DNA from: Candidatus Enterousia sp.
GTDB taxonomy: Bacteria; Pseudomonadota; Alphaproteobacteria; Rs-D84
Assembly: GCA_045648885.1 (NCBI GenBank)
Contig: JAZROV010000002.1
Coordinates: 94,628-158,627, forward strand
Length of the DNA: 64,000 bases
Direction of reading: 5' to 3'
The position numbers were made by a program, and so were the translations under genes. The notes beneath the pieces were generated by a model. That model did no database searches, was not told the origin of the DNA, and worked only from the letters and a program-made list of their open reading frames with translations. Positions 1 through 17,827 of this stretch are shown here, piece by piece; position 1 is the stretch's first letter, and every line of letters begins with the position of its first letter.

Positions 1-40
1 ATATCATAATAAAACGAAATCAACAGCGTTTTTAAAAGAA

Positions 41-2365
41 ATGTTTGCAAAATATTATGATGTTGAAACTTTTGATTTTGACCCGTATAAAGATGATATG
101 TCAAAACATTTTTTACCGTTAAAGGGCAAAAAATATGACGTAGTTGTAATTTTTCAGATAATGCCGGAATTAGATAAATTAAAAAAATATATCAAATTCA
201 AACACTGTGCGTTTTTCCCAATGTATGACGGTGTTCCACCACGCGACAATTCGATTTGGTATCAATATAGAAATGTAAATATAATCAATTTTTCAAAAAC
301 TTTACACGATGAATTAAAATTACTAGGTTTTTCATCTTTTTATTTTCAATTTTTTCCAAAGCCCATAGAAATAACAGACCAAGGTGATGAAAAATCTATC
401 TTTTTCTGGCAAAGAATAAATGCGATAAATATCAATACGCTTGAAAAACTGATTGATTTCAAGGGTATTAAACATATTCATTTTCATCACGCAATTGATC
501 CAAAACATACTTTCGTTGAACCGTCAGACAAAATTGCAAAAAAGGCGACACATTCAACATGGTTTGAAACGCGCGAAGATATGCAAAAACAAATGCAGAA
601 ATCTGCTGTTTATATTGCACCACGCGCATTTGAAGGTATCGGAATGTCTTTTTTAGAAGCGATGTCGATGGGGCGTTGTGTGATTGCACCAAACAATCCG
701 ACGATGAATGAATATATTGTGAACGGTGAAAATGGAATATTGTATGATTTAAATAACCCCATGCCGATTGATTTGTCTGATATTCGCGGTATTCAAAAAC
801 GTACTGAAAAATTCATCAAAGATGGATACGAAAAATGGGAATCAGAAAAGTGGAAAATTATAGATGTTTTGACACACAAGCCTGTCATAAATAAATCAAA
901 ATTAAATAACAAATATCTACAAAAACCAGACTTTGATAACCTTTATAATTTATTTGGAATATTGCCGATTATGCGCATAGTTGGACATAATTGGCACAAA
1001 GCATATAAATTATTTGGTTTTTTACCATTTTTGTTGATCAAAGGTAATGATTTTAGACGCCGTGTATATGTTTTTGGTTTGCCTGTTTTAAGAATAAAAG
1101 GTAATAAACCAGAAATAAAACCTGGACCCGTTAATAATATGCCAGCAGAAGTGACTATGAATTTGCAGAAAACACCAAACCCGAAAGGGCGTGTTTTGAT
1201 GGTTTTTCATATGAATTTTTTACGAAAAGATCAAGGTTGTTCAAATTATATATATGAAACCGCGATGTTGTTGAAAAAAATGGGCTATGCAATTGATTTT
1301 TTCTCAGCAGATTTGTTTAGTTTTAATGCATTTGGTGATTTGGCAGAATTAAATAAACGTGAAAAATTAATAGATAATTTTTATTTTGCAAATTATAAAA
1401 ATTCAACCAAATATGAAACGTCGTGGGATGTGCATGCATCTGATATAAACTGGGTTAACGATTTTACCCGCAGATTTTTTGAAAAAATAGTTACACAAAA
1501 TAAATATGATTATATTGATATACATTACATACAATGGGCAAATTTGTTGTTGAATCGTAAAAAGTTATTTCCAGATACTGTTGCTGTGTATCATTGTCAA
1601 GATAGCAATTTTATGCAAAAATTTTTAAACACTGTTGCAGATTTACCAACAACTGCAAATATTGTAGCAAATGCGTTTGCAAGTGAATATAAATCGTATG
1701 GTTTATTTGATAAATTTATGTGTATTTCATATGATGAAATGTTGTTTTGGCAAAAATTTTTCCAAAACAAAGAATTTTATTTTATGCCACATCCATTGAA
1801 CGCAATAAGATATGATAATAAAAAACATAAAGATATAGATGTATTATTTTTGGCGGCATATAATCCGTATAATTTACATGGTCTGCAATGGTTTGTTGAT
1901 GAGGTTTGTCCGCATTTAAGCAAAAATATAAAGATAACAGTTTGCGGACGTATAGTGCAGTTTTTGAAAACAAATAATCCAGAATATATAGACAAAATGA
2001 AAAATTTAGGTTTTAATTTAATTGATTATGCTAATAATTTGGAAGATTTGTATTCTAAAACAAAGATAGCAATGGTGCCTTTGTATGAAGGGACTGGTAT
2101 GAAAATTAAAACCATAGAGGCCATGTCACATAATATACCAATTGTGTCCAGAAGTGCCGGTGTTGATGGTTTTCCAGATAAAACAAATAATGGAATTTTA
2201 GTAACCGATGATCCACATCAGTTTGCAAAGTATTTGGAAAAATTGTACACAGATAAAAAGTTTTATAACAATATCAAAGATCGAGAATACGAATATTTTC
2301 AAACGCATTTTTCTAAAACAAATGTGCAAGATTTGATGAAACGTGTATTTGTTGTTAATAAATGA
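41..2365 (+). CDS. two-domain glycosyltransferase (GT-B/GT4-like N- and C-terminal domains) with central basic-hydrophobic repeats
   Basis: 774-aa ORF. N-terminal domain has EGIGMSFLEAMSMGRCVIAPN and the C-terminal domain has EGTGMKIKTIEAMSHNIPIV, both matching the GT4 E-x7-E-type nucleotide-sugar binding signature. The central region carries three LFGxLPxxxIKG repeats. Confidence 0.6.
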   Translation: MFAKYYDVETFDFDPYKDDMSKHFLPLKGKKYDVVVIFQIMPELDKLKKYIKFKHCAFFPMYDGVPPRDNSIWYQYRNVNIINFSKTLHDELKLLGFSSFYFQFFPKPIEITDQGDEKSIFFWQRINAININTLEKLIDFKGIKHIHFHHAIDPKHTFVEPSDKIAKKATHSTWFETREDMQKQMQKSAVYIAPRAFEGIGMSFLEAMSMGRCVIAPNNPTMNEYIVNGENGILYDLNNPMPIDLSDIRGIQKRTEKFIKDGYEKWESEKWKIIDVLTHKPVINKSKLNNKYLQKPDFDNLYNLFGILPIMRIVGHNWHKAYKLFGFLPFLLIKGNDFRRRVYVFGLPVLRIKGNKPEIKPGPVNNMPAEVTMNLQKTPNPKGRVLMVFHMNFLRKDQGCSNYIYETAMLLKKMGYAIDFFSADLFSFNAFGDLAELNKREKLIDNFYFANYKNSTKYETSWDVHASDINWVNDFTRRFFEKIVTQNKYDYIDIHYIQWANLLLNRKKLFPDTVAVYHCQDSNFMQKFLNTVADLPTTANIVANAFASEYKSYGLFDKFMCISYDEMLFWQKFFQNKEFYFMPHPLNAIRYDNKKHKDIDVLFLAAYNPYNLHGLQWFVDEVCPHLSKNIKITVCGRIVQFLKTNNPEYIDKMKNLGFNLIDYANNLEDLYSKTKIAMVPLYEGTGMKIKTIEAMSHNIPIVSRSAGVDGFPDKTNNGILVTDDPHQFAKYLEKLYTDKKFYNNIKDREYEYFQTHFSKTNVQDLMKRVFVVNK

Positions 2366-5300
2366 AAGAGAATAAAATGAAAAAACAATTAAACATATTG
2401 ATTGATGGACGCACTTTAAAATGGGGCTTATCTAAGGGTACGCGTAACGGTATTTTTTTCGTAACAAAAAATGTTTTTCAAGAATTAACGCAAAGAAACA
2501 ATGTAAACATACACATGTTTTTACCATGTGAAGATGCAAATTTATCAGATCAATTGATTAGTTTAATAGGTGCAAAATCTATGTCTGTTGTGACAGATCG
2601 AGATGATATGTCATCAATAGATGCATTTTTATCGCCATTGGAAAAAATACCGGATTGTGTGAAACAATATCCAAATATTTCGAATTATACAATATTATAT
2701 GATGTGACTCCGTTGATTTTTCCAATGTATTTTAAATCTGGGTCTACAGGTTGGTTTGAACAATTGGTGGCTTCATTAAATTTACAAGATTTCTATTTTT
2801 CAATTTCTGATTATACTAAATCTGATTTTTTAAGGTATTGTCCAAATTTAGATAGTGATAAAATTACAACAATACCTTTGTCGACAAATTTACCATATAA
2901 ACCAAATACAAAAGCAAAACAATTAGCGGCTGTGTGCAAAAAATATAATATACCAACCGACAAAAAATATCTTTTTTCCCTTTGTTCGCTGGAACCACGT
3001 AAAAATTTAATTCGTGCTGTAAAAACATTTTTGGATTTTATAAAAAAAAATAAAATCAATGATTTGGTTTATGTCTTGGGCGGTGGTGCGTGGAGCGGTT
3101 TTGTTGAAAAATTAGAAAAGGAAGTTCCAGATTATCAAAAATATTCTGATAAAATTATTCGTGCAGGCTATGTTGATGATGCTGATTTGGAAATTTTATA
3201 TTCCAACGCGTTGTGGTTTGTTTATACTTCGCAATACGAAGGTTTCGGTATGCCGCCATTAGAGGCAATGTCTTGCGGATGTCCTGTGATTACATCAAAT
3301 AATACCAGTTTGCCAGAAGTTGTTGGTGGGGCGGGTCAAATGATAGATTGGGACAGTGACGAACAACATGTTGCATCGTATGAAAAATATTATTTTGATG
3401 AAAAATATCGTAAATCAATGGCGAAAAAAGGGTTGGCACGTTCTAAAAAATTTTCATGGAAATCTGCCGTTGATATTATTTTAAATAAAATGAATGAAAT
3501 TGAAAAACGCAAATCAAACAAACCATTGGTGACTGTGGTCACAGGCTCTTTTAACCTGATTAAAAACGGTCGGCAGGAAACGTTTGCGCAAACAATAGAA
3601 TCTGTTCAAAAACAGACATATAAAAATATTGAACATATTGTGATTGACGGGGCTTCGACCGATGGCACAATCGATTTGTTAAAAGAATATGAAAAAAAAG
3701 GCCTTATTAAATACTATTCTGAACCAGACAAGGGTATTTATGATGCTATGAACAAAGGTATTTTAAAGGCCAAAGGAAAATATGTAGTTTGTTTGAACAG
3801 TGATGATTTTTATTCTGATGAACATGCGATTGAATGGTTAGTGAAAAAAGCAGAAGAACAAAATGCAGATGCTGTTTATGCTGATGCTGTGCGTGTTAAC
3901 CCAAAAACTTTGGCGGTTATAAATGTATGGCCAGGAAAAGGAAATTTCCAACCATGGAAACCGCAATTCCCGTGTCATCAAACATTTTTAATTAAAACAG
4001 ACGTAATGAAAGAATTAGGATTGTATAAATTAAAATACAAAGTGTGTGCGGATAATGCTTTTTTTTGTCGTTTGGAACAACATAATAAAAAAATTGCCGT
4101 GTTGGATAGAAAAATTATAACTTTTCGCGATGGTGGTTTTTCAAATGATAATATGGCTGTTGTAGAACAAGATAAAAAAGAGCTTTTGTTTGAAGAGTTG
4201 GGGCAATATCATAATTTAACAAAAGACGATTGTTCAAATTTGATTTTAAACAGATTTTGTTCTTTGCCTATTGATGATGCTATTAAATTAGGTGCTAAAC
4301 TTGAAAAATCAGAATGGGTTAAACAATATTTTAATATTTTATCTGATTATCATTTGCGCAATATACGTGTTCCAGATAAAACAGAAATAAATTGTGTTTT
4401 TAATTTATTTGATGTTTTTCGGTTATTTAAATATGAACAAACCAAAGATTTCGTGCGTTTAAAAATATTTGGTATCACAGTGTTTAAAATCAGAAAAACA
4501 TTATATTTTCAAAAATATTATTTGTTTGGGTTGCCTATTTTTAAAATAAATAATTTAACCCAGAAAAGAAATATACTGCAAAATATAATGTTTAAATTTG
4601 CAAATAAACAAAAAATATTCAAAAGAAATAAATTTTTATTGGTTGATAATACATTTAATAATACTGCCGAATTGACCGATAGTTTTGCTTTGTTTGAATA
4701 TTTACAGGCACATCCAAAATATAAAGATAAAAGTTATTATATTATAAACAAATTAAACGCACAATTTGACGAGATTGCAAAAAAATATCCGAACAATATT
4801 ATTCCGGTTGAACATGGTCGTTTAAATTGGTGTTTGCTTTGGAAAATGGTACGTGCAAAATATTGGATTGATTCATTCCAGGTTATTGGTTCTTTTGATC
4901 CAGATGGCGAGATTTGTAATGGACAAATCACAACTGTTTATGCACAACATGGTATCAATTATCTTAAACTGGGTTTTTTGGGTGATATGTCAATCAGTCC
5001 AAAATATTTTAATAAAATAATTTTCAGCAATGAAACAGAACGCGATTTATTCAAAAACTATTATGGCTATGACGATAAAAATACAATTATTGCGGGCTTG
5101 TCTCGTTGGGATTTAATGAAAGAGAAATCTGAAGAAAAAATAATTTTTGTGTTCTTTACTTTCCGAGATTATTTAAGAAAATTATCGGGAGATGCGATTG
5201 CTAAGACACGGTATTATGAAAATGTTTGCAGATTGTTAAATTCAAAAAAATTAAATGATTTGCTGAAAAAACATAACGTAAAATTATATGCAGCAGTTCA

Positions 5301-6189
5301 TCACGAAATGATAAATAATAAAACAATAAAAAATACTTTGTCGCATATCAATTTTATCGCAGATAAAGATATTGGTGAAATCAAACAAAAAGCGTCTATG
5401 TTGATTACTGATTTTTCCAGCATGTGTTTCGATTTTATGATAAAAGATAAACCTGTTGTTTTCTTCCACATAGATGCAGGTGATGAACTTTGTAAATTAT
5501 CGCCAGATAGTTATGAAAATGATTTAAATGTCGAATCTAAAAATGACGAACTTTATAATGTCTTTTACGATGTTGATGGTGTTTTAAATTCGATTGAATA
5601 TTATTTAAAACATAATTTTGAATTGGAAAAAGATAAAAAAGATAAACATTCAAAATTTTTCGCATATCAGCAAGATATTCGTCAACATATTATTGATGGT
5701 TTATTAAAATCGCCAGATAATATCTATAATGATGTTTTTCAATATGATTTATCTGATTTACCAGCGCTGCAATATGATACACAAATTATTTTCAATAATG
5801 ATATGCCTATGCATGTATATGGTTTAGCTGGCGCTGAACCATGGGGATGTTGGAGTGTTGATAAAAAATGCGCGATGGCTTTTAAATTACCAAATGAAAG
5901 TGAGGTTGTTTTGAAATTTGATTGTTCTGGATATGTCAATGATTTGCATCGAAATTTAATTGTAGATGTGTTTACTAATAATAAACGAAAAACACAATGG
6001 AAATTCAGATATGGCAAAACATTTAATGCACCAGAAATTAAAATTACTAAGCAAGATTGTGACGACAATAATATATGCAAAATCTATTTCGTTGTACGTA
6101 ATGCTAAATCTCCATATAAACTTGGCATCAGTAATGATAAGCGTTCTTTGGGAATCGGATTTAAGTCTTTGATAATTCATAAGTGTTAA
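2362..6189 (+). CDS. multidomain glycopolymer synthase: GT4 + GT2 + TagF-like CDP-glycerol/ribitol phosphotransferase + conserved C-terminal module
   Basis: 1275-aa ORF whose start overlaps the upstream stop by 4 nt (ATGA). GT4 motif EGFGMPPLEAMSCGCPVITSN. GT2 region VTGSFNLIKNGRQETFAQTIESVQKQTYKNIEHIVIDGASTDGT with DxD at CLNSDDF. TagB/TagF-like region ending ITDFSSMCFDFMIKDKPVVFF. C-terminal module PWGCW ... SPYKLGISNDKRSLGIGFKSL. Confidence 0.6.
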   Translation: MKENKMKKQLNILIDGRTLKWGLSKGTRNGIFFVTKNVFQELTQRNNVNIHMFLPCEDANLSDQLISLIGAKSMSVVTDRDDMSSIDAFLSPLEKIPDCVKQYPNISNYTILYDVTPLIFPMYFKSGSTGWFEQLVASLNLQDFYFSISDYTKSDFLRYCPNLDSDKITTIPLSTNLPYKPNTKAKQLAAVCKKYNIPTDKKYLFSLCSLEPRKNLIRAVKTFLDFIKKNKINDLVYVLGGGAWSGFVEKLEKEVPDYQKYSDKIIRAGYVDDADLEILYSNALWFVYTSQYEGFGMPPLEAMSCGCPVITSNNTSLPEVVGGAGQMIDWDSDEQHVASYEKYYFDEKYRKSMAKKGLARSKKFSWKSAVDIILNKMNEIEKRKSNKPLVTVVTGSFNLIKNGRQETFAQTIESVQKQTYKNIEHIVIDGASTDGTIDLLKEYEKKGLIKYYSEPDKGIYDAMNKGILKAKGKYVVCLNSDDFYSDEHAIEWLVKKAEEQNADAVYADAVRVNPKTLAVINVWPGKGNFQPWKPQFPCHQTFLIKTDVMKELGLYKLKYKVCADNAFFCRLEQHNKKIAVLDRKIITFRDGGFSNDNMAVVEQDKKELLFEELGQYHNLTKDDCSNLILNRFCSLPIDDAIKLGAKLEKSEWVKQYFNILSDYHLRNIRVPDKTEINCVFNLFDVFRLFKYEQTKDFVRLKIFGITVFKIRKTLYFQKYYLFGLPIFKINNLTQKRNILQNIMFKFANKQKIFKRNKFLLVDNTFNNTAELTDSFALFEYLQAHPKYKDKSYYIINKLNAQFDEIAKKYPNNIIPVEHGRLNWCLLWKMVRAKYWIDSFQVIGSFDPDGEICNGQITTVYAQHGINYLKLGFLGDMSISPKYFNKIIFSNETERDLFKNYYGYDDKNTIIAGLSRWDLMKEKSEEKIIFVFFTFRDYLRKLSGDAIAKTRYYENVCRLLNSKKLNDLLKKHNVKLYAAVHHEMINNKTIKNTLSHINFIADKDIGEIKQKASMLITDFSSMCFDFMIKDKPVVFFHIDAGDELCKLSPDSYENDLNVESKNDELYNVFYDVDGVLNSIEYYLKHNFELEKDKKDKHSKFFAYQQDIRQHIIDGLLKSPDNIYNDVFQYDLSDLPALQYDTQIIFNNDMPMHVYGLAGAEPWGCWSVDKKCAMAFKLPNESEVVLKFDCSGYVNDLHRNLIVDVFTNNKRKTQWKFRYGKTFNAPEIKITKQDCDDNNICKIYFVVRNAKSPYKLGISNDKRSLGIGFKSLIIHKC

Positions 6190-6210
6190 TAAAAAGGCAG
6201 TGGTGAAATC

Positions 6211-7176
6211 ATGAAAAAACAAACAAACAATTTAAGTAAAAAAACTGAGCATGTTGAAAATGTTCTGTATTTAGCGAATCAGAACGAAATTGAAAAGTTT
6301 TTTTCTGAATATGGTCAATATCATGGGCTTAGTCGGTATGATATCAACAGATTGGTTAACAATAATTTTCTTGGAATTCCATTAAATGAAGCTATTGAGT
6401 TGGGTGCAAAATTGGAACGGCCAGAATGGAAACAAGAATATTTTGATATTTTATTAAATAATCATATCTATTCAAAAAAACAAAATTTTTCAGTTATTGG
6501 TAATAGTATGCCTTTTGTGAAAAAATATTATTTGTTTGATTTATTGCTGTTGATGAAAACGAAGTTGAAATATGGTATTAAACGTTATTTGTTATTTGGC
6601 TTTTTGCCTTTGATTCGTATCAGGTATCAAGACAATAAATTAAAAGATATTTTATTGTTGTCTGTGATACCGTTTTTTTCCAATACATATGATAGTATTC
6701 GTTTGTTCGGTATACCGGTGTTTTTTAAACAAAAACTGAACGAAACTTATATTCCGATTAAACCGGGCTTTTACAGCACTGCTAGGATGTTAAAGTTTGT
6801 CTTGAAAGGGATGTTTGCTTGTGAAGCATGGGGTGCGTGGTCGCGTGGTGATTCGACATCTTTTTTATTAAAAACCGATGATAAATATATTGCAGAATTT
6901 GATGTGAAACCTTTTTGGGCCAAAGGTAAAGAAAAACAAATCGTGACAGTTTATCTGAATGGTCACAGAAAAAATAAATATGTTTTTGAAGCAGGACAAA
7001 AAATTCCAAAAATCAGTCTTGTTTTGCCTAAATCAGAAAGATTGCACATAATGTTTAAATATACAGATGTAAAATCACCAAAGGATTTAGGGTTATCTGC
7101 AGATGGACGCAAAATCACGATAGGGTTTAAATCGTTAGAAGTAAAAAATATCATGGACGAGAAACATAAATGTTAA
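6211..7176 (+). CDS. paralogous accessory protein sharing a linker region and the C-terminal module with the upstream polymerase
   Basis: 321 aa. The N-terminal segment (GQYHGLSRYDINRLV...AIELGAKLERPEWKQEYFDIL) aligns with residues about 620-690 of the 1275-aa protein. The C-terminus EAWGAWS...SPKDLGLSADGRKITIGFKSLEV is the conserved module. It carries LLFGFLPLIRIRY and IRLFGIPVFFKQK repeats. Confidence 0.5.
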   Translation: MKKQTNNLSKKTEHVENVLYLANQNEIEKFFSEYGQYHGLSRYDINRLVNNNFLGIPLNEAIELGAKLERPEWKQEYFDILLNNHIYSKKQNFSVIGNSMPFVKKYYLFDLLLLMKTKLKYGIKRYLLFGFLPLIRIRYQDNKLKDILLLSVIPFFSNTYDSIRLFGIPVFFKQKLNETYIPIKPGFYSTARMLKFVLKGMFACEAWGAWSRGDSTSFLLKTDDKYIAEFDVKPFWAKGKEKQIVTVYLNGHRKNKYVFEAGQKIPKISLVLPKSERLHIMFKYTDVKSPKDLGLSADGRKITIGFKSLEVKNIMDEKHKC

Positions 7177-8807
7177 AAAAACAAGAAACGCCATATTGTA
7201 AAAAATATTTTTTATTTGGAAAATGTATTTGGCAACACCGAAAGCCAATTAAAGAAATAGCAGAATATTTATTATCTGTGGTTTCAGATTCAATAAAATC
7301 TGAAATTGATAAATCAAATGCGGCTTTGCGGATGCTGTCTGATGCGATAGATAAAAAATTTTCAATTTTGAATGAATCTGATATTAAAAATGCAAATCAA
7401 ATTGATAAAATAAATTCAAATTTAAAAAAATATACTTTGAATACGCAAACGGATAATTTAAACCGCGCTGTTCAATTGTTGTCTGAAACTGTTGATGCAC
7501 GCTTTGATGTTTTGCAATCTGATGTTAAAGATTATATTAAAAATATATATGAAAAAGTCAGATATTTTAAAATATGCGACAATAAATTATTAATTGATGG
7601 TTTATACAACATAGAAGATTGGGGTGGATGGATAAATGAAACATGTAATATCTATTTGCGGTTTGATAAAAGTATAAAAAATGACGTTGATATTCAAATT
7701 GATATTTCTAGATTTAATACCAAATCAGAACAAGATCTAATTGTATTTATCAATGATGAGTTTTATCAAAAATTTGTAAATGTGTCTGGAAAGATTTTGG
7801 TACAAATACCATATCAAGATTTGATAAAACATGATTATAAAATTATTTTATCTTTTGTTGCCCCAAACCAAATTTCACCATTTGAATTAGGTGTTGGTAA
7901 TGATACTAGAAAATTAAGTTATGGTATTATCAGTATTGAATCAAATGCAGATGTCATATTGTCTGGGTTTGATTCAAAAAGTTTTTATGATTTCAATAAA
8001 TACACAACTTGTTTTATGCAAAATGAATGGTTGCAGTATATCTCAGAAGATTTAAATAATAACAAATTGCAAAATTTATATTGTGGTTTATCCAAAGACA
8101 GTGTTGATATATTGAATCTTTTAATGTATCGCAGACAAAATGAATATAAATTTTCTGGAATGGAATTATATCAAAAACATTTAGCGTGGACTAATGATGT
8201 TTCAAAATATAAAATTGTGAACAAAATTGGTTTTCAACCAGAAGTGTTCTTTTTCAAAAATGGTTTAAAATTTATTGACGATAAAATTATAGAAAGACAT
8301 TTATCAAATGGATGTATCATAGACGGTGGTGCCTGTAGTGGTGATTCTGCGTTGATGTTCGCTGAATATGATTTTGTTAAAAAAATTTATGCGTTTGAAC
8401 CAGTTAAAAATACATTTGCCGATATGGCAGAAACATTGACAATAAATAATTGTTCAAAAGCCGAAGCAATAAATGAGGGTTTGGGCGATAAAAACGGAAT
8501 TACAGAAATTATGGGTGAAAAATGTAAAGTCACAACATTGGATAATTTTGCAAAAAATAAAACTATATCATGTATAAAGTTAGACGTAGAAGGTATGGAA
8601 TATAAAGTAATTCAAGGGGCCTTAGAAACAATTAAACGTGATAAACCGTTGTTGTTGATTTGTATATATCATACACCAAAAGATTTTTTTGAAATAAAAC
8701 CGCTTATTGAATCTTTAAATTTAGGTTATAAATTCAAAGTTGTTGATACAGAACCGTGTAATTATGCGGTTGGTATTCATGCAATGTTGATTGGGTATAC
8801 GGAGTAA
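7170..8807 (+). CDS. coiled-coil / conserved-module / FkbM-family methyltransferase fusion protein
   Basis: 545 aa. The central DWGGWI...SPFELGVGNDTRKLSYGIISIES is the conserved module. The C-terminus IIDGGACSGDSALMFAEY...AFEP matches the FkbM/SAM-dependent methyltransferase signature. Start overlaps the previous stop. Confidence 0.55.
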   Translation: MLKKQETPYCKKYFLFGKCIWQHRKPIKEIAEYLLSVVSDSIKSEIDKSNAALRMLSDAIDKKFSILNESDIKNANQIDKINSNLKKYTLNTQTDNLNRAVQLLSETVDARFDVLQSDVKDYIKNIYEKVRYFKICDNKLLIDGLYNIEDWGGWINETCNIYLRFDKSIKNDVDIQIDISRFNTKSEQDLIVFINDEFYQKFVNVSGKILVQIPYQDLIKHDYKIILSFVAPNQISPFELGVGNDTRKLSYGIISIESNADVILSGFDSKSFYDFNKYTTCFMQNEWLQYISEDLNNNKLQNLYCGLSKDSVDILNLLMYRRQNEYKFSGMELYQKHLAWTNDVSKYKIVNKIGFQPEVFFFKNGLKFIDDKIIERHLSNGCIIDGGACSGDSALMFAEYDFVKKIYAFEPVKNTFADMAETLTINNCSKAEAINEGLGDKNGITEIMGEKCKVTTLDNFAKNKTISCIKLDVEGMEYKVIQGALETIKRDKPLLLICIYHTPKDFFEIKPLIESLNLGYKFKVVDTEPCNYAVGIHAMLIGYTE

Positions 8808-9063
8808 AAAATGGCAAAAAAACGAATATGTGTTATCGAAAGATGATAATCAAAAATATATTATTAAAAATATAGAAAAAGAATTTTTGAATGATTGGGT
8901 TACACCAATATTGCCGAGTGTCGAAAAAAAGTTAAAACTAGAAATAACAGATAGTTGGTACAATACAAAATATACAATTGATTTTATAAAAGCGACATAT
9001 GCTTATTATGACAAACATCCAGAATTGGTAAGTTTAAATAAACACATTGTTGATAATATTTAA
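8791..9063 (+). CDS. hypothetical small protein
   Basis: 90-aa ORF overlapping the end of the upstream gene by 17 nt. No recognisable motif. Confidence 0.2.
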   Translation: MGIRSKKWQKNEYVLSKDDNQKYIIKNIEKEFLNDWVTPILPSVEKKLKLEITDSWYNTKYTIDFIKATYAYYDKHPELVSLNKHIVDNI

Positions 9064-9068
9064 AAATT

Positions 9069-9100
9069 TTGTTTATTTTTTAACCAATTTGTGATATAAT
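9069..9100 (+). promoter_or_regulatory. candidate sigma70 promoter with extended -10 (TGaTATAAT) upstream of the tail-fibre-like gene
   Basis: tgtgatataat at 9090-9100, followed by a strong Shine-Dalgarno AAGGAG 7 nt before the ATG at 9188. Confidence 0.35.
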
Positions 9101-9187
9101 ACCAAACATAGGCGGTGATTTGTATCATCGCTGTTTTTTTGTGCCTGGTTTTTTATCAGGCGTTTTTTTATTATTTAAGGAGAAATA

Positions 9188-10378
9188 ATGTCTAGACAAA
9201 TACAAATCCGGCGCGGCAGTGCCGCTGAACACGATAATTTTACCGGTGCAATTGGCGAAATTACTATGGATACAACAAACAAAACTCTGCGTGTACATGA
9301 TGGGGTTACGGTTGGGGGTAATGAAATTATGTCAATGGATAAATTTTATTCAAATATAACGAATTGTATTACATGTATTCCACAAGATATAAATTTAAAA
9401 TTATCTGATGGGACATTGACTTTAAAGGCTGGTAGTAAATGTTATCTGAAAACAGACACAACTACACCAAGTATTGCTGTTTCATCTGATTTAACAACTA
9501 CACAAACAACGAATGGTAGTTATTTTGTGTTTTATGATGGAACTGGTTTGACGACAGCTTTGACTAATACGTATGATTATTCTAGTTTGCCAGATACATA
9601 TTCATTGCCTTTGGCGATAGTGACTGTTTCAGGAAATACTATATCGTCCATTGATCAAATATTTAATGGTTTTGGGTTTATTGGTGCTAAGGTTTTTGTT
9701 TTACCTGGTGTCAAAGGGTTGGCTCCAAATGGAAAAAATTCAGATGGAACTTTGAAAAATACAACTATTTCTATATCATCTGTAAAAATATCAGATACAT
9801 ATAATTCAAAATATGTTATGAATTCAGACGGTATAGTTCCTGCCAGTTATACAACGTATGTTGAACAGGACACCAAACCAAGTTTTTCTAATGGTGATTG
9901 GTATAATCCAGACGAAAATATTATGTATCAAATAGTCAATGGGGTTGCCATACCAAAGGTTAGATTATACGCGTTCGATGTTTTTGCAGCTGGCAGTGGT
10001 GTTCAACCGGCTATAGGAATAAAACTAAAACAAACATTTCATTCGTTAAGTTATGGTGACAAAGGTGTTGTTGCAGGTTGGAGTATGCCATCAGGTAAAA
10101 AAATATCTTTGACATTAGGGGCGTCGGATTCAACATACAAAGCACCAGCAAATGGTTGGTTTTATTTAGAAGCAATTGTTCCAACTAATGGGTATGCAGT
10201 TCGACTTGTTGCAACAGATGGGACTGCAAAGAAATCCCAAGTTCGTTCTGGTGCAAATAACCAATATTGTATTGTTCCATTATATCCCACATATGCTGGT
10301 GAAATAGTTCAGGTTCACTATGATGGAACTTTATCAAGCGTATCATTTTTATTTATTTATGCGCAAGGCGAAAAATAG
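9188..10378 (+). CDS. phage tail-fibre-like protein (conserved tail-fibre N-terminal motif)
   Basis: N-terminus IQIRRGSAAEHDNFTGAIGEITMDTTNKTLRVHDGVTVGG matches the RRGxAAxW...GEIGxETDTxKxKIGDGVT motif shared by phage tail fibre and hyaluronidase-type proteins. The remainder is Thr/Ser/Gly-rich and beta-rich. Confidence 0.5.
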   Translation: MSRQIQIRRGSAAEHDNFTGAIGEITMDTTNKTLRVHDGVTVGGNEIMSMDKFYSNITNCITCIPQDINLKLSDGTLTLKAGSKCYLKTDTTTPSIAVSSDLTTTQTTNGSYFVFYDGTGLTTALTNTYDYSSLPDTYSLPLAIVTVSGNTISSIDQIFNGFGFIGAKVFVLPGVKGLAPNGKNSDGTLKNTTISISSVKISDTYNSKYVMNSDGIVPASYTTYVEQDTKPSFSNGDWYNPDENIMYQIVNGVAIPKVRLYAFDVFAAGSGVQPAIGIKLKQTFHSLSYGDKGVVAGWSMPSGKKISLTLGASDSTYKAPANGWFYLEAIVPTNGYAVRLVATDGTAKKSQVRSGANNQYCIVPLYPTYAGEIVQVHYDGTLSSVSFLFIYAQGEK

Positions 10379-10387
10379 GAGAATAGA

Positions 10388-10735
10388 ATGTTTAAAGCAA
10401 TAAAAGATAATAAAATTATAGCAATCAGCGATACCGATTCAGAGTTTTTATGTATTGTGAAAGATACTGTGGAAGCAGATGATACCTGTGTTTGTGAAGA
10501 TTTTGGGCAATATAATGGTGAATATTTATTAAAATCCAAAATCCCAATTCCGACAAAAGAAGAACAAAGAGAAAAACGTGCGATGGCATATCGTGATGAA
10601 ATAGATCCAATAACTGCGCATATATCTCGGCTGCGTGATGAAGAACAATCAGAAGAAATTATTTCGGAAATATCAGATTTAATTTTAGAACGCGCACAAA
10701 AGGTTGCAGAAATAAAACAAACCTATCCGTATTAA
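10388..10735 (+). CDS. hypothetical acidic protein, possible tail-fibre assembly chaperone
   Basis: 115-aa ORF 10 nt downstream of the tail-fibre-like gene. The call rests on position only; a rho-independent terminator follows. Confidence 0.25.
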   Translation: MFKAIKDNKIIAISDTDSEFLCIVKDTVEADDTCVCEDFGQYNGEYLLKSKIPIPTKEEQREKRAMAYRDEIDPITAHISRLRDEEQSEEIISEISDLILERAQKVAEIKQTYPY

Positions 10736-10743
10736 AAATTTTT

Positions 10744-10776
10744 AACTGCATACGTTTGGCGTATGCAGTTTTTTTA
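10744..10776 (+). terminator. rho-independent terminator
   Basis: ctgcatacgtttggcgtatgcag hairpin followed by a T-run. Confidence 0.6.
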
Positions 10777-10832
10777 TATAAATCTTGATTGTATACATTT
10801 ATTTTTGTATGCTAAATCTAAAGTTATAATTA

Positions 10833-11903
10833 TTGGATAATGTAATTATGAAAAAAAAGTTATTATTTCTTGTTTTGGGGTTCATATTCGTTTTGACGAT
10901 ACTGTTATTTTTTGTGTTTGTCGAAACAAAACAAGCTGGTCCAGAAGATTTAATCATATATTTTAATAAAAATGGGAATATATCTGAATATAAAACAACA
11001 GGTTTTTCACATCCGGAAACAGACAGAACGTGGACCGATGGGCGAACAGCATCTATTGTTGTTCCATATAATAAAGTTCAAGATTATTTTGTGCGTGCCA
11101 CGTTTGATATCAACCCATTTTTGACTAAGAAAATAAAAAAACAAACTGTTAATGTTTTGGTAAACGATAAATTTGTAACAAAGTGGAATATTAGTAAGGC
11201 CGGAACTTATGCATTTGATTTGCCTGTTGATTTTGAAACAGATGATAATAAGATGACTATTAAATTTGAAATTCCTGATGCAAAAAGCCCTAAAGAATTA
11301 AAACTATCGTCTGATGCCCGTAAATTAGGCTTGGGAATGAAAAGATTAGTTTTATCGCAAGTTAGTCAAGAAAATCCGAATAATTACAAACATTATCATA
11401 TTGGCGACAGAATATATTTTAATGCTGGTGGAAATTCCAAACTTTATACTGGCACTGGTTGGTCATCGCAAGAAAAAGATTTTACTTGGACCGATGGAAA
11501 TGATGCTTATTTGAATTTATTTATAGAAGATGCGTTGGATAAAAAATTACAACTGAATATTTTTGGATACGGAATTTTTGAACAATCAGATGAATGTCAA
11601 AAGGTAACAGTATATGCAAATAATTCAGAATTAACAACATGGTGTTTGTCATGCCAAGACGATAATTATGCGGTTGAAATACCAGAAACAGTAATTGGTT
11701 ATGGAGCGGTTCAAATTAGATTACATATAGAAAAACCATTCGTTGCAAAACCAGATCCCAGACATTTAGGAGCGGCTGTGAAAAATGTTTATATTTCACA
11801 AGTGTTTGCAGCAAAAACAAAAGTTAAAATAGCGCGTTGGATAAAAAATAAAGTTTTGAAATCGTCTGATGCTAAGCCATCGCCCGATGCACCGATTGAA
11901 TGA
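10833..11903 (+). CDS. membrane-anchored protein with two tandem copies of the conserved C-terminal module
   Basis: N-terminal TM helix LLFLVLGFIFVLTILLFFVFV. Copy 1 is TDRTWTDGRTAS...SPKELKLSSDARKLGLGMKRLVLSQV. Copy 2 is KDFTWTDGNDAY...DPRHLGAAVKNVYISQV. Confidence 0.5.
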   Translation: MDNVIMKKKLLFLVLGFIFVLTILLFFVFVETKQAGPEDLIIYFNKNGNISEYKTTGFSHPETDRTWTDGRTASIVVPYNKVQDYFVRATFDINPFLTKKIKKQTVNVLVNDKFVTKWNISKAGTYAFDLPVDFETDDNKMTIKFEIPDAKSPKELKLSSDARKLGLGMKRLVLSQVSQENPNNYKHYHIGDRIYFNAGGNSKLYTGTGWSSQEKDFTWTDGNDAYLNLFIEDALDKKLQLNIFGYGIFEQSDECQKVTVYANNSELTTWCLSCQDDNYAVEIPETVIGYGAVQIRLHIEKPFVAKPDPRHLGAAVKNVYISQVFAAKTKVKIARWIKNKVLKSSDAKPSPDAPIE

Positions 11904-12126
11904 ATTTTGGACAAATCAATTTGACAATTTATTAATAAAATGTAATATTATTCTTAAGCGGCAGGTGTTCTGTCGTTTGGGTATCACTAACCCTTGTGTA
12001 CAGAAGTCAGCGATGACTGAAAAAATCTCCAACATTGGTTGGAGTGTGCGAATATATTGAATAAGCACAACAAATTCTGTACTTTGTTAGTGAACTCCAA
12101 CCACCAGGTATTTTTATGGTGGTTTT

Positions 12127-12868: not shown

Positions 12869-13627
12869 GTGTGTTCAATGAAAAAATCACACAAAAGAAA
12901 AATTAAAAAATTTTTTAGATTGCTTTATGGCTGGGGCGTCGTTCAATGGGCGGCTGCGCTGGTTTATTATGTGCTGATTTGGTTCGTGTTCATTACATCT
13001 AAAAAGCAAATGTCAGGACTGGAAATTTTGCATGAATACGCCAAAAAACCTGCGATTTTTGTGTTTTGGCATGGGCGGACGATGATGTTGTCGCCGGTTA
13101 TATCTTTGGCGCGTGTTCGGGGGTATATTATTGCAGATAAACGCAAAGACGGTCGGGCGATTGCCAAAATGGAAAAATTATTCGGGTTAAAGACTATTTA
13201 TGGATCATCGCGTGATGGTGGCGTTTCTGTGCTGCGTAAAGGGGTGGCTGCCCTGCGTGGGGGGAAAAATTGTTTAGCCTTTTCGCCTGATGGGCCAAAT
13301 GGGCCGTCTATGCGGTTTCATGATGGGGCATTGTATTTTGCCAAGATGACTGGTGCGCCGATAATACCGGTTTGTTATTCGTGTTCGCGGCCGTGGTTTT
13401 TAAATCGTTGGGATCGGTATTTGCTGGCTAAACCTTTTTCGATTATCGCAGGAAATGTCGGAACGCCTATATTCATAGATGCCAAGACAAAGACAAATGA
13501 GTTTGAAAAAATTCGTAAAAATCTGGAAGATTTAATGGTCAAACAGGCGCGAGATTTGGACAGAAAATTTACTGATTTTACAGTAGAGCAAGATTTAACA
13601 CCTGAGAATTTTAGCGAGAAAAAATGA
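12869..13627 (+). CDS. DUF374-type lysophospholipid/lipid A acyltransferase-like protein
   Basis: FVFWHGRTMMLSPV...GKNCLAFSPDGPNGPSMRFHDGALYFAKMTGAPIIPV is typical of DUF374 proteins found next to lpxK/waaA. Translationally coupled to lpxK. Confidence 0.5.
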   Translation: MCSMKKSHKRKIKKFFRLLYGWGVVQWAAALVYYVLIWFVFITSKKQMSGLEILHEYAKKPAIFVFWHGRTMMLSPVISLARVRGYIIADKRKDGRAIAKMEKLFGLKTIYGSSRDGGVSVLRKGVAALRGGKNCLAFSPDGPNGPSMRFHDGALYFAKMTGAPIIPVCYSCSRPWFLNRWDRYLLAKPFSIIAGNVGTPIFIDAKTKTNEFEKIRKNLEDLMVKQARDLDRKFTDFTVEQDLTPENFSEKK

Positions 13628-14550
13628 AAACACCAAATTGGTTTTTAAAAAGAAATTTAATAAGTTTTTTACTTTACCCGCTTTCTGGGTTGTATTATGT
13701 TGCGTCCAGATGTGTTTTTGTTTTGCGGAAAAATCGTGAATATGTATCGCGTCGTCCTGTTATTTGTTTTGGCAATATTTTGGCTGGGGGGGTTGGTAAA
13801 ACACCGTTAGTTCGTGAGATGGCTCGTTTTTTTGATGCGCCGGTGGTTATGCGCGGATACAAAAAGACAAAATATACTGATAATGTTGGGGACGAAGCCA
13901 AAATGTTGATGAATGATGGAATTTTAGTGCATGTTGGAAATCGTAAAAGCAATCTGGTTTTATTAAATAAACAAAAATCAAATACCCCGATTATAATGGA
14001 TGATGGGTTTCAAAATTCGTCTATTAAAAAAGATATTTCTGTGTTGGTGTTTGATGAAAGTTTGGGGTTTGGAAACGGTTTTTTGTTGCCTGCGGGCCCA
14101 TTGCGTGAAAAACCGACAGCTATAAACCGCGCAGATGCCATTATCGTTATAAAAAGAAAAAAAATCGCAAAAAATTTTTATTTGCCAACTGATGTTCCTA
14201 TTTTTTATGCGACGACAAACGAAGATTGTCCGTATAATGCAAAAACTTCTGTGGTTGCTTTTGCAGGTATCGGATATCCAAAAAAATTTTTTGAAAATAC
14301 ACCATGTAAAATCGTGGCGCAACGTGTTTTCCCAGATCATTATCAATACACTGACCAAGATATTCACGATTTAATTAAATTGGCAGATGAAAAACATGCG
14401 CATTTATTGACGACTGAAAAAGATTGGGTTCGTTTACCAGATTGGGCAAAAGAAAAAATTGCTTTTTCGAAATTAAATATTCAAATTGAAAAAGATTTTT
14501 ACGATTGGATAAAGGAAAGGATACATGACAACAATAACAAAAAAAGTTAA
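13624..14550 (+). CDS. lpxK: tetraacyldisaccharide 4'-kinase
   Basis: P-loop GNILAGGVGKTPLV with length and context matching LpxK. ATGA overlap with the upstream gene. Confidence 0.7.
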   Translation: MKTPNWFLKRNLISFLLYPLSGLYYVASRCVFVLRKNREYVSRRPVICFGNILAGGVGKTPLVREMARFFDAPVVMRGYKKTKYTDNVGDEAKMLMNDGILVHVGNRKSNLVLLNKQKSNTPIIMDDGFQNSSIKKDISVLVFDESLGFGNGFLLPAGPLREKPTAINRADAIIVIKRKKIAKNFYLPTDVPIFYATTNEDCPYNAKTSVVAFAGIGYPKKFFENTPCKIVAQRVFPDHYQYTDQDIHDLIKLADEKHAHLLTTEKDWVRLPDWAKEKIAFSKLNIQIEKDFYDWIKERIHDNNNKKS

Positions 14551-15460
14551 AATATCCGGGGTTGGTATTCATTCTGGGTTGCCAGTTGATTTGGTTGTTT
14601 TGCCATCTAAGAAAAATGGGATTTTTTTTAAACGTGTTGATATGCCGGGTGCTGATTTAATTCCTGCCAGATTTGATAATGTTGGTGATACGTTTATGCG
14701 TAATACTACGATTGGCAAAAAAGATGGCGCACATGTTCAAACAATTGAACATTTGATGGCGACATTGTTTTTATTAGGTGTGGACAGTGCTGTTATCGAA
14801 ATCAATGGCCCCGAAACCCCGATTTTAGACGGCAGCGCCTATGAATTTTACAATGCGTTGAAAGACGCAGTCGGTAAAAAAACAAAAATGAAAAAAATCA
14901 TTGTTAAAAAGACAGTTGTTGCACACAGAAATGAATTAGCAAAACAATTACCTTTTTGGCGCCGTTTAAAGACGATAATTTTAAACCATACAGTTGGTCG
15001 GCGCGGAAATGGTTTCGTTAAATTGTCGCCAAATGACAAAGGATTATTTATCAATGCGACGTTGGTTTATCCTGATAAAATTATCGGGACACAATCGTTT
15101 TCTTGTGTGTTGGACGGAACAAAAAAATCTGTTGATAATTTTGTGAAAAATATTTCGAAATCTAGAACGTTTGGAAAATATTCTGAATGGGAATGGTTAA
15201 AGGCACACGGTATGGCACGTGGCGCAAATGAAAACAATATTATCGCGTTAAATGATTCAGGAGACGGAACATTGAATAAATTGCTGTATCCTGATGAATT
15301 TGTGCGGCATAAGATAATAGATGCTGTTGGCGATATGTTTACCAGTTCTGGATTTGTTTACGGTACGTTGGAATCGGTTAAAGGTTCGCATGCGTTAAAC
15401 AATTTGGTGTTAAGAAAATTATTCAGTGATAAATCTAATTATGAAATCATTGAAGAATAA
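14525..15460 (+). CDS. lpxC: UDP-3-O-acyl-N-acetylglucosamine deacetylase
   Basis: KISGVGIHSGLPV, HKIIDAVGDM and the zinc-deacetylase fold signature over about 310 aa. Confidence 0.8.
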   Translation: MTTITKKVKISGVGIHSGLPVDLVVLPSKKNGIFFKRVDMPGADLIPARFDNVGDTFMRNTTIGKKDGAHVQTIEHLMATLFLLGVDSAVIEINGPETPILDGSAYEFYNALKDAVGKKTKMKKIIVKKTVVAHRNELAKQLPFWRRLKTIILNHTVGRRGNGFVKLSPNDKGLFINATLVYPDKIIGTQSFSCVLDGTKKSVDNFVKNISKSRTFGKYSEWEWLKAHGMARGANENNIIALNDSGDGTLNKLLYPDEFVRHKIIDAVGDMFTSSGFVYGTLESVKGSHALNNLVLRKLFSDKSNYEIIEE

Positions 15461-15892: not shown

Positions 15893-17140
15893 TTGATGAA
15901 ACAAGTCATAACCGTTCGTCGCAGAAAATATGCAACAGGTCTTTTTTGGCAGCCTGTAAATCCGGGCGTGACACCGTATCTTTATGCGCGACAATTGGTC
16001 GCAAAAAGCGATAAAAAATATACTCTGTTGACCGAATATAAATCGATGATCGGGTTGGCAGAATCGCGCGACGGTGTTCGGTCGGGAATGAATACTGCTG
16101 CGGCAGAGGTTATGAACGCATTTCCTGAATTTTCATCATTTTTGGGTGTTTTTCGTGTAGATAATCGGTTTTATCTGGTTGCGGTGCGTAATGGTGTTAT
16201 TATTCGTGATGTTTTGGTGGAAAAAGAAAGCGATGCCCGAAAATTATACGCTGAATTATCAAATATGCCAGATTGGGGGGCGTTGTTTGCCCCGTCAAGT
16301 TGGGGTATGCCTCGTTCCCAGGAAAAATTTTTGCAAGATATTGTGAAAAATGAATCTGTGGCACGGTTGCGTCAAATCAGTATTGTAAAATCTGTCGCGC
16401 CGTCAATTGTTTTGTTTTTAATTTTATTGGGTGTTGGTTTGTATTTTCTTTATTCTCCGTTGTTTAAATCTATGTCTGCGCCAAAAAGCACAGGGTTGAA
16501 TCCTGAATTGATGGCCGAATATCAAAAGCAATTGGAAGCGAAAAACCAAGAATTAGACAAAGAGTTTGAGATTGTAAAATCTGCATTGGTTTATCCATAT
16601 GATAATTTGCCCGATGTCATGGAACGGGCGCGGCTTTGTTATAAAGCAACCGGGTTTGTGATGCAGCCTGTGATGGGTTGGGACCAGAAAAATACAATGT
16701 GTGACGAAGAACATGTATCTGTGGTCTTTACGCGTGATTTTGGAACATTAAATGATTTTTATTTGGTTGGTGGTGATGTTATGCCGGGCGGTATAGTGCA
16801 CCAGGTATCTGATAATGAAATTCGTGTGCGTGCAAAATTGCCGGCATTAAAAACACATTCTTCGGTTGATGAACGTGACCAAGAAACGGCTATGCGTGAC
16901 ATAGTTTCTGTTTTTCAACAGGTAAATATGAAAGCGGGTATCAGGGCATCAAATGAAATTATTCGTAATAATAAAGAAAAAGCAACTGTGAATTTTATAG
17001 AAGTCAGCGCGAGTTCTAAATTAGTGCCGTCTGAATTTATGCAGATATTTAATGATTTTGATGGTGTTTATATGAAATCTGTTGGGTGGGATGCAAGAGA
17101 TAGAATCTGGAATTACAACGTTGTTATTTATACAAAATAA
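15893..17140 (+). CDS. bitopic inner-membrane assembly protein (GspL/PilO-like) of a T2SS/T4P-family apparatus
   Basis: 415 aa with an ~160-aa cytoplasmic domain, a single TM (SIVLFLILLGVGLYFLY) and a periplasmic domain. It lies directly upstream of the PilP-like, ATPase and platform genes. Confidence 0.35.
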   Translation: MMKQVITVRRRKYATGLFWQPVNPGVTPYLYARQLVAKSDKKYTLLTEYKSMIGLAESRDGVRSGMNTAAAEVMNAFPEFSSFLGVFRVDNRFYLVAVRNGVIIRDVLVEKESDARKLYAELSNMPDWGALFAPSSWGMPRSQEKFLQDIVKNESVARLRQISIVKSVAPSIVLFLILLGVGLYFLYSPLFKSMSAPKSTGLNPELMAEYQKQLEAKNQELDKEFEIVKSALVYPYDNLPDVMERARLCYKATGFVMQPVMGWDQKNTMCDEEHVSVVFTRDFGTLNDFYLVGGDVMPGGIVHQVSDNEIRVRAKLPALKTHSSVDERDQETAMRDIVSVFQQVNMKAGIRASNEIIRNNKEKATVNFIEVSASSKLVPSEFMQIFNDFDGVYMKSVGWDARDRIWNYNVVIYTK

Positions 17141-17152
17141 AAAGGTGAAAAA

Positions 17153-17824: not shown

Positions 17825-17827
17825 AAT

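Follow-up and report, generated by a model that had tools for sequence, protein, structure and literature searches.

How soluble glycosyltransferases reach the membrane, and each other, during the synthesis of lipopolysaccharide (LPS), capsule, and teichoic-acid-like polymers is an old and partly open question, for which amphipathic helices, basic patches, and coiled-coil scaffolds have so far been identified as solutions. We analyzed a repeated peptide module encoded in a glycan assembly cluster of Candidatus Enterousia sp., at the start of a 64,000-nucleotide (nt) stretch of contig JAZROV010000002.1 (positions 94,628 to 158,627 of the forward strand; hereafter the window). Among the closest described systems are TagF, TarL, and Bcs3, which bind the membrane through amphipathic α-helices, namely α4/α6 of S. 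aureus TarL, a two-helix region of S. epidermidis TagF, and a predicted C-terminal helix bundle of Hib Bcs3 (PMC10901376, PMC10299916). WbdD has a catalytic terminator head and, beyond a coiled-coil molecular ruler, an end that binds the membrane by an amphipathic helix and recruits the polymerase (PMC11231755). The second open reading frame (ORF) of the window, ORF2, encodes a TagF-like domain, and just upstream of it, where TarL and TagF have their membrane-binding helices, lie tandem copies of an approximately 20-residue motif that is predicted to form β-hairpins; protein P0126 from a profile search described below has the module in the same place.

Four tightly packed ORFs, all in the same direction, fill nt 1–8807 of the window. 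Three of these, ORF1 to ORF3, each hold three to four tandem copies of the motif KxYxLFGxxPLLKIK, located at domain boundaries and exactly within those parts of the proteins that are left unannotated by Pfam and NCBIfam. The modules are as follows.

941–1105, + strand: ORF1 hairpin module, three copies, YNLFGILPIMRIVG (944–985), YKLFGFLPFLLIKG (1004–1045), and RRVYVFGLPVLRIKGN (1058–1105)
4393–4551, + strand: ORF2 hairpin module, with a degenerate FNLFDVFRLFKYE (~4396–4437), LKIFGITVFKIRK (4459–4497), and QKYYLFGLPIFKINN (4510–4554)
6520–6735, + strand: ORF3 hairpin module, KKYYLFDLLLLMKTK (6520–6564), KRYLLFGFLPLIRIRY (6580–6627), a degenerate ILLLSVIPFFSNT (6649–6687), and IRLFGIPVFFKQ (6697–6732)
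7200–7244, + strand: N-terminal KKYFLFGKCIWQHRK of ORF4, doubtful or vestigial, with the first strand and FG turn only and neither Pro nor second-strand consensus

The copies in ORF1 begin at amino acids (aa) 304, 324, and 344, an exact 20-residue period, and this module aligns without internal gaps to the stand-alone three-hairpin proteins described below. An initial annotation of the locus had placed such peptides in ORF1 to ORF3, and both regular-expression counts against shuffles and a family profile confirm them at those positions; its list of copies in ORF2 and ORF3 was correct but missed the degenerate FNLFDVFRLFKYE of ORF2 and one of the four copies of ORF3, the degenerate ILLLSVIPFFSN (nt ~6649–6687, aa 147–160). 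Copy 3 of ORF2 was matched by a single-hairpin profile at E 1e-4. The further claim that ORF4 starts with a copy did not hold up, as KKYFLFGKCIWQHRK was detected by neither the triple-module nor the single-hairpin profile and matches only in the first strand and turn. This candidate was consequently rejected as a genuine family member and is at best a vestige of a hairpin; what speaks for it is positional analogy with a hexapeptide acetyltransferase of locus L003 and with P0104, an ORF4 homologue (methyltransferase, 54% identical) that has a full triple hairpin module at its start.

The core regular expression [LIVF]FG-x(1,2)-P-[LIVFM] was counted in the four proteins and in 2000 residue shuffles of them, which gave 6 occurrences against 0.058 expected and a maximum of 2 in any shuffle. 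By this shuffled-sequence control, which the initial annotation had named for motif frequency, the motif is non-random. A stricter pattern occurred 4 times against 0.002 expected, and was found nowhere else in the 64 kb in any of the six frames. A family profile (A4) was built from 50 members, to which the window contributed only ORF1, with ORF2 left out, and was run on the 1097 six-frame stop-to-stop segments of the window. It matched ORF1 (nt 941–1105, E 2e-18), ORF2 (4393–4551, E 8e-12), and ORF3 (6520–6735, E 6e-8) and nothing beyond these sites, the next best segment having an E of 0.17. The GC content of the region, 28–33%, would suit a compositional artefact of an AT-rich genome with a proteome rich in K, I, F, and L. 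That explanation is refuted by the shuffles (6 observed versus 0.06 expected), by the confinement of profile matches to these sites in 64 kb, and by recovery of the family at E down to 1e-42 among 1.84 billion proteins, and we give it next to no weight. No 60-nt tandem repeat was found in the DNA encoding the repeats, and the copies are alike only as protein. Recent DNA duplication was therefore rejected as their origin, and likeness restricted to the protein level indicates that the repeats are old and conserved.

To delimit the family, 1.84 billion representative proteins were searched exhaustively with HMMER, clusters being counted at 50% identity. The resulting family is modest, with 272 clusters at E≤1e-3, 74 of them at E≤1e-10, and best E-values down to 1e-42. 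Of the 148 top hits, 81 (55%) have the module at the C-terminus, 40 (27%) are short stand-alone proteins of ≤125 aa (59–125 aa, 39 of the 40 beginning with Met), 17 (11%) have it internally, and 10 (7%) have it at the N-terminus. Partner domains, counted on the 89 hits of at least 190 aa, were GT2 (50), GT4 (12), GT8 (11), DUF1796 (4), TupA ATP-grasp (3), HAD (3), AKR (2), Glyphos_transf (2), and DUF7024 (2), with Stealth, RgpF, WcbI, DUF4422, and FUT8-like domains found once each. The partners thus span at least a dozen unrelated enzyme folds, with 1–5 copies of the hairpin per protein, usually three, and the GC content of carrier loci ranges from 26% to 51%. Most carriers are GT2, GT4, or GT8 enzymes, so that the module extends well beyond the TagF-like enzymes to which the initial annotation had attributed it. 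Nearly all hits for which the source was checked are from metagenome assemblies or metagenome-assembled genomes (MAGs), which is probably why no Pfam entry exists for the module. A word-indexed homology search with the linker of ORF1 alone found nothing, and a tblastn search of plasmids with two of the modules gave no match.

Small proteins of 61–93 aa were recovered by a word-indexed profile search, the complete ones consisting of a short leader followed by three copies; both searches of this kind yielded short proteins almost exclusively. Three stand-alone lineages (L004, L007-9, and L010-12) directly follow a GT2 gene within glycosyltransferase clusters; they have Shine-Dalgarno-like sites and share the conserved start M-x-E-x-x-K-H-S-K/R-x-I-K-L-F-G. 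The GT2 encoded upstream of the stand-alone gene already ends in a full triple module, most of the other enzymes in these loci end with a single copy, and an acetyltransferase begins with one. Single-copy tails often close in acidic residues (…LFGFIPLLSIEDK and …YKLFGFIPLLSIEDK, each directly before the stop). Six consecutive carriers occupy L004:2038-7031, namely a GT2, the stand-alone protein, a hexapeptide acetyltransferase, a 324-aa protein of no assigned function, a second GT2, and a GT8; the single-copy tails of this locus end acidic (IEDK, IDDN), unlike the basic multi-copy modules. Elsewhere the number of carriers is 3–4 in the window, 4 in L007, 3 in L003, 4 in L017, and 2 in L019, while the stretch examined of L015 holds one gene with the module.

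In two unrelated loci the tail is in frame with an upstream GT2 or GT8 gene and cut off from it by a single in-frame stop (L015:7941-7943, L017:7974-7976, and L017:6785-6952). The stop is TAG in L015 and TAA twice in L017, the tail segment at 6788–6952 of L017 has no in-frame ATG, GTG, or TTG start, and the stop-then-tail arrangement of L015 was seen again in at least 24 contigs. Possible explanations are readthrough of the stop codon, a tail that varies between on and off, and decay.

Such truncated tails in L015 and L017, together with the position of the module between domains in the window and its degenerate copies (ORF2 copy 1, ORF3 copies 1 and 3, and ORF4), would be compatible with a passive spacer or fossil linker left by gene fusion and having no function of its own. 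We consider this improbable given that conservation is seen at the protein level without any DNA repeat structure, that loci with GC from 0.26 to 0.51 carry the module, that its position across the 272 clusters is mostly terminal instead of linking, and that stand-alone genes exist.

The fold of the module was predicted with AlphaFold2 for two targets, the stand-alone protein P0020 and aa 1–195 of ORF3; ORF1 entered only as an aligned sequence. P0020, modeled from an alignment of 19 sequences that included the three window modules, gave six strands (predicted local distance difference test score (pLDDT) 86, predicted template modeling score 0.63), with F-G(-F) in tight turns and GG/NG loops between the hairpins. 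The ORF3 model has a helical N-terminal part followed by hairpins exactly at the motif positions (strands 102–108/112–120, 123–128/132–140, 143–148, and 162–165/168–172), with pLDDT of 83–92 over aa 101–140, where copies 1 and 2 are in the same register as in P0020, and low values for copies 3 and 4. Each repeat is thus predicted to be a β-hairpin with FG in the tight turn. The initial annotation had read the repeats as amphipathic peptides of the kind used by TagF-type polymerases, a reading that these models contradict, as TagF, TarL, and Bcs3 use α-helices (PMC10901376, PMC10299916).

No structure in the PDB matched the predicted fold at E<0.2 in Foldseek. The nearest shapes (E 0.4–1.3, TM-score <0.5) were the single-layer sheet of OspA and the sheet domain of TarM, GtfA, and SdgB, which suggests a sheet without a core of its own. 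The latter domain, called DUF1975, is inserted in the glycosyltransferase fold, and in TarM and GtfA it mediates glycosyltransferase oligomerization or partner binding. Both likenesses, which concern antiparallel meander sheets, are non-significant and without sequence similarity, and the module consists of terminal repeats, whereas the TarM/GtfA/SdgB domains are insertions within the GT fold. Choline- or cell-wall-binding repeats (CW_binding_1) also have a period of about 20 residues, one β-hairpin per repeat with conserved aromatic residues and Gly, and variable copy number at enzyme termini. They form an extracellular solenoid that binds choline or glucan, whereas the module is a predicted flat meander on cytoplasmic carriers without signal peptides, and CW_binding_1 gave no Pfam match for the modules even at E up to 10. 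A secreted cell-wall-binding repeat was accordingly dropped as a candidate, its partners being cytoplasmic enzymes. A transmembrane β-barrel or pore was likewise dropped, since the uninterrupted hydrophobic stretch next to the turn is only ~2–4 residues per strand.

At the sequence level, the best match of the profile to PDB sequences had an E of 0.37, and no Pfam-A or NCBIfam family covers the repeats of ORF1 to ORF3, isolated modules giving only sub-threshold matches. The uncharacterized Pfam family DUF5963 (PF19388) weakly matched 10 of the 77 short hairpin proteins as well as the ORF2 module (4393–4596), always with the same part of the profile and with a best E of 0.002; the matches did not reach the gathering score of 23 bits (scores shown, 13.3 and 15.4), and the likeness may point to remote kinship or to a short motif in common. 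Searches of the literature for fragments of the motif and for DUF5963 returned no papers. The hairpin module thus appears to lack any description in Pfam, NCBIfam, the PDB, or such literature as could be searched.

Residue statistics were compiled from 242 distinct hairpin instances. Turn positions −4 to +2 hold no acidic residue at all and basic residues only at −3, and some nine positions around the turn (Y-K-L-F-G-F-I-P-L-L) are strongly hydrophobic and aromatic and likewise free of acidic residues, with mean Wimley-White values of −0.4 to −0.9 kcal/mol at the hydrophobic positions. The flanks at the open end are 40–62% K/R, and the triple module has a mean net charge of +12 (range +5 to +17). 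Summed over the tips, the Wimley-White interfacial energy is −10.8 kcal/mol for ORF1, −10.4 for ORF2, and −17.2 for ORF3. Judged from strand register in the models, neither face of the sheet is cleanly polar, and the polarity probably follows the length of each hairpin, hydrophobic at the tip and basic at the base. No transmembrane segment is present in ORF1 to ORF4, whose highest 19-aa Kyte-Doolittle mean is 1.11 (3.22 for the neighboring ORF 10833), and no hydrophobic N-terminal stretch was seen in these four proteins. The carriers use nucleotide-sugar donors.

We infer from these properties that the module could be a monotopic anchor at the interface of an anionic membrane, a reading to which we give an even chance. 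Each hairpin would comprise a strand, the F-G turn, x-P with the second strand, and a G/N-rich loop, and tandem copies, usually three, would form an open, core-less, six-stranded β-meander in which the hydrophobic and aromatic tips (Y-x-L-F-G-F-L-P-L-L) all lie on one edge and Lys and Arg along the opposite one. The tips would insert into the inner membrane's cytoplasmic leaflet, anionic head groups would be bound by the basic collar, and copy number would set avidity. The module would in this way tether otherwise soluble glycan-assembly enzymes (GT2, GT4, GT8, TagF-like phosphotransferases, acetyltransferases, and methyltransferases) beside the lipid-linked acceptor and, in coiled-coil terminator proteins, would indicate which end is near the membrane. 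A need for such an anchor arises because ORF1 to ORF4 lack transmembrane segments and yet act on lipid-linked acceptors, and their cluster adjoins lpxK and lpxC; partners of many unrelated folds are as expected for a generic targeting device, and the variable copy number is consistent with additive units and not with a closed domain. Membrane association had also been proposed in the initial annotation, and it agrees with the residue properties, namely hydrophobic tips, bases rich in K/R, and the lack of transmembrane segments in ORF1 to ORF4, although not in the form of amphipathic helices.

The comparison with TagF-like anchors points the same way. These too combine a hydrophobic surface with basic clusters directly beside the TagF-like GT-B domain, as the module does in ORF2 and P0126; the Glyphos_transf match of ORF2 starts only at aa 764, after the repeats. 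Their monotopic tethering of the polymerase to the lipid-linked acceptor, with multivalency strengthening binding (PMC10901376, PMC10299916), is what may by analogy hold for the module. The differences are that TagF-like anchors are α-helices, whereas the module consists of predicted β-hairpins with no sequence or fold similarity to them, and that the module is promiscuous, being found mostly with GT2, GT4, and GT8 domains and also as a stand-alone protein. WbdD provides a second analogy, in that a module, a coiled coil, and a modifying enzyme follow each other in the L003 acetyltransferase and perhaps in ORF4 with its FkbM domain, and in P0061, P0087, and P0099 a coiled coil comes after the N-terminal module. 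In this arrangement the module occupies the place of the membrane and recruitment end of WbdD. The polarity of the module is opposite to that in WbdD (N-terminal) and its structure would be β instead of helical; in ORF4 the hairpin copy is at best vestigial and the coiled coil is suggested by sequence and a weak CCDC47 hit. In P0061, P0070, P0087, and P0099 (132–266 aa) the N-terminal triple module precedes an extended coiled-coil-like region, rich in Q, E, and K, that ends in …RVYHAELLERLDNLP; these proteins lack a catalytic domain and may serve as scaffolds or rulers.

Several points weigh against a membrane anchor. The AlphaFold2 predictions draw on shallow alignments of 19–20 sequences, and side-chain exposure was deduced from strand register only. 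It is costly to bury the backbone of a hairpin within a bilayer, and β-hairpin anchors would be unusual for bacterial glycosyltransferases. The conserved stand-alone three-hairpin proteins have no enzyme to anchor, and single hairpins with acidic ends would bind an anionic membrane weakly and look like partners for a basic hub. Moreover, nearly all multi-gene loci have several carriers, which also fits docking. The hairpins of different proteins could pair edge-to-edge (β-augmentation) or tip-to-tip into a pathway complex, with the stand-alone basic triple-hairpin protein or the non-catalytic ORF3 as its hub and membrane binding absent or secondary. This is a tentative alternative, which we favor less than the anchor. 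It draws on the several carriers per locus (3–4 in the window, 6 in L004, 4 in L007, 3 in L003, 4 in L017, and 2 in L019), on the conservation of stand-alone proteins of 59–96 aa with their leader and Shine-Dalgarno-like sites, on the occurrence of acidic-ended single terminal hairpins alongside basic triple modules, and on the two free edge strands that an open meander leaves. In O-antigen assembly, moreover, separately encoded modules are known to form complexes whose recruitment sites are close to the membrane (PMC11231755). With a mean net charge of +12, however, homotypic association would be repulsive unless neutralized by an anionic surface, every copy in the window is basic, and L015 has a single carrier, so that hetero-docking is not obligatory.

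Anchor and docking are not mutually exclusive, as the C-terminal region of WbdD does both. A hub-and-tail code would combine the two: a membrane-seated polybasic multi-hairpin protein, which could be the stand-alone protein of 60–90 aa or, here, ORF3, nucleates a mixed intermolecular β-sheet that enzyme tails join by β-augmentation, and the charge of the tails (acidic single versus basic triple) together with copy number would specify order or stoichiometry. We put this forward as a speculative scheme, somewhat less probable again than docking alone. If true, it would let a whole LPS, lipooligosaccharide, or capsule line be put together from interchangeable enzymes via a tag of about 20 residues, and would explain the free shuffling of this tag among unrelated enzyme folds.

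A further possibility is that the tips bind the acceptor through its polyprenyl or lipid A portion and not the bulk membrane. All enzymes to which the module is attached act on lipid-linked glycans, its tip is hydrophobic and contains Pro, lipid A genes adjoin the cluster, and the tip pattern F-x-x-I-P-Φ is reminiscent of proposed polyisoprenol recognition sequences. That resemblance is short and to sequences originally described for helices. Carriers such as terminating methyltransferases and acetyltransferases are expected at very different distances from the lipid, and the module also exists as a stand-alone protein, so we regard specific lipid binding as unlikely.

A portable β-hairpin unit of about 20 residues that is stackable, attached to enzymes, and also present as a free mini-protein would, if true, be a new structural solution to the problem of bringing soluble glycosyltransferases to the membrane and together, and we regard the module as a new structural variant of membrane-targeting or assembly appendages on glycan-assembly enzymes. 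If this is correct, annotators could use it to tell which ends of multi-domain glycan enzymes are near the membrane and where fusion has joined such proteins, its removal could give soluble enzymes for vaccine-glycan synthesis, as was done with the helix bundle of Bcs3, and grafted modules could target enzymes to membranes.

The internal position of the module in the window is explained by the architecture of the ORFs and their relatives. The ORFs and the segment preceding the ORF2 hairpins, with domains assigned by Pfam and NCBIfam, are as follows.

1–2365, + strand: ORF1, a GT4 domain, the triple hairpin module, and a second GT4 domain
2362–6189, + strand: ORF2, 1275 aa, with GT4, GT2, helical segment, hairpin module, TagF-like Glyphos_transf (aa 764–1103, nt 4651–5670), and DUF7024 (aa 1151–1273, nt 5812–6180)
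4153–4392, + strand: conserved helical GQYHxLT...LGAKLE..EW segment of ORF2 (aa 598–677), preceding the hairpins
6211–7176, + strand: ORF3, 321 aa, with helical segment, four hairpins, and a DUF7024-like β domain (aa ~195–312, nt 6793–7146), without catalytic domain
7170–8807, + strand: ORF4, 545 aa, with a possible vestigial N-terminal hairpin, a helical or coiled-coil-like stretch (aa ~26–139), DUF7024 (aa 142–257, nt 7593–7940), and an FkbM methyltransferase (aa 385–521, nt 8322–8732)

ORF1 runs past the window start, with its frame open back to nt 2; its homologue in the near-identical metagenome contig L001 has 797 aa. Its Glycos_transf_1/Glyco_trans_1_4 matches are at aa 168–240 and aa 600–738. 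No Pfam or NCBIfam family matched ORF3. Contrary to the initial annotation, the four ORFs are not all glycosyltransferases: ORF3 is not one and ORF4 is a methyltransferase.

The ORF1 homologue in L002, which is 73% identical, ends right after the third copy, where three stop codons follow. In L003, a 358-aa GT4 has two copies at its end and the ORF2 homologue, a GT4-GT2 protein of 760 aa, has four; a hexapeptide acetyltransferase of the same locus has N-terminal copies followed by a Q-rich coiled coil. With the homologues of ORF1 in L002 and of ORF2 in L003 both terminating directly behind their repeats, gene fusions are held responsible for the internal position seen in the window. On this sequence evidence, ORF1 is a GT4-tail protein fused to an extra GT4, and ORF2 is a GT4-GT2-tail protein fused to a TagF-like-DUF7024 protein. 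The module would thus once have been a C- or N-terminal tail, which became internal when neighboring genes fused. P0126 shows an alternative layout, with an N-terminal module directly before the TagF-like domain.

By BLASTP, ORF3 has two collinear matches to ORF2, at ORF2 aa 598–727 (E 3e-17) and 1154–1275 (E 4e-13). The first includes the helical segment preceding the ORF2 hairpins, which aligns with ORF3 aa 19–91 (30% identity, E 3e-17); the ORF3 counterpart is predicted to be helical, and the segment is also present in the ORF2 homologue of L003. The C-terminal domain of ORF3 matches aa 139–257 of ORF4. Judging from these alignments, ORF3 is a paralogue of ORF2 stripped of its GT and TagF-like parts. 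With this paralogue and the fusions in ORF1 and ORF2, the module shuffling within the locus suggested by the initial annotation is borne out.

The cluster has a GC content of 0.28–0.33 (window 1–12000), compared with 0.35–0.43 in the rest of the window, which suggests a horizontally acquired or fast-evolving surface-glycan island. Downstream lie genes for a DUF374 protein (12869–13627), lpxK (13624–14550), and lpxC (14525–15460), on the basis of which the cluster is assigned to LPS or polysaccharide assembly; these are followed by type IV pilus or type II secretion system-like genes (15893–20531). The nearest genomic relatives of the cluster are MAGs labeled Alphaproteobacteria. The taxonomy of the family rests on the MAGs of L002 and L003 and on family member P0024, which all bear the name Alphaproteobacteria bacterium, as cluster look-ups of ten members yielded hardly any names.

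A DUF7024-like β domain with the conserved sequence …KSPKELGLSxDxRKLGxGFKSL is shared by ORF2, ORF3, ORF4, and ORF 10833 (10833–11903), which combines it with an N-terminal transmembrane helix. A literature string search on DUF7024 returned no papers, and the domain may be a carbohydrate-binding module. Directly after ORF4, a 90-aa ORF (8791–9063) contains 77 residues that are 100% identical to the C-terminal end of the 291-aa WcbI encoded in L001 (12601–13476), the window genome having lost ~214 N-terminal wcbI codons. Also inside the glycan cluster are a 396-aa protein with an N-terminal Mtd_N domain (phage major tropism determinant; 9188–10378) and a 115-aa acidic ORF (10388–10735). Among the flanking ORFs scanned around the Mtd_N protein there were no other phage genes and no reverse transcriptase. 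Both the Mtd_N protein and the acidic ORF are kept in L001.

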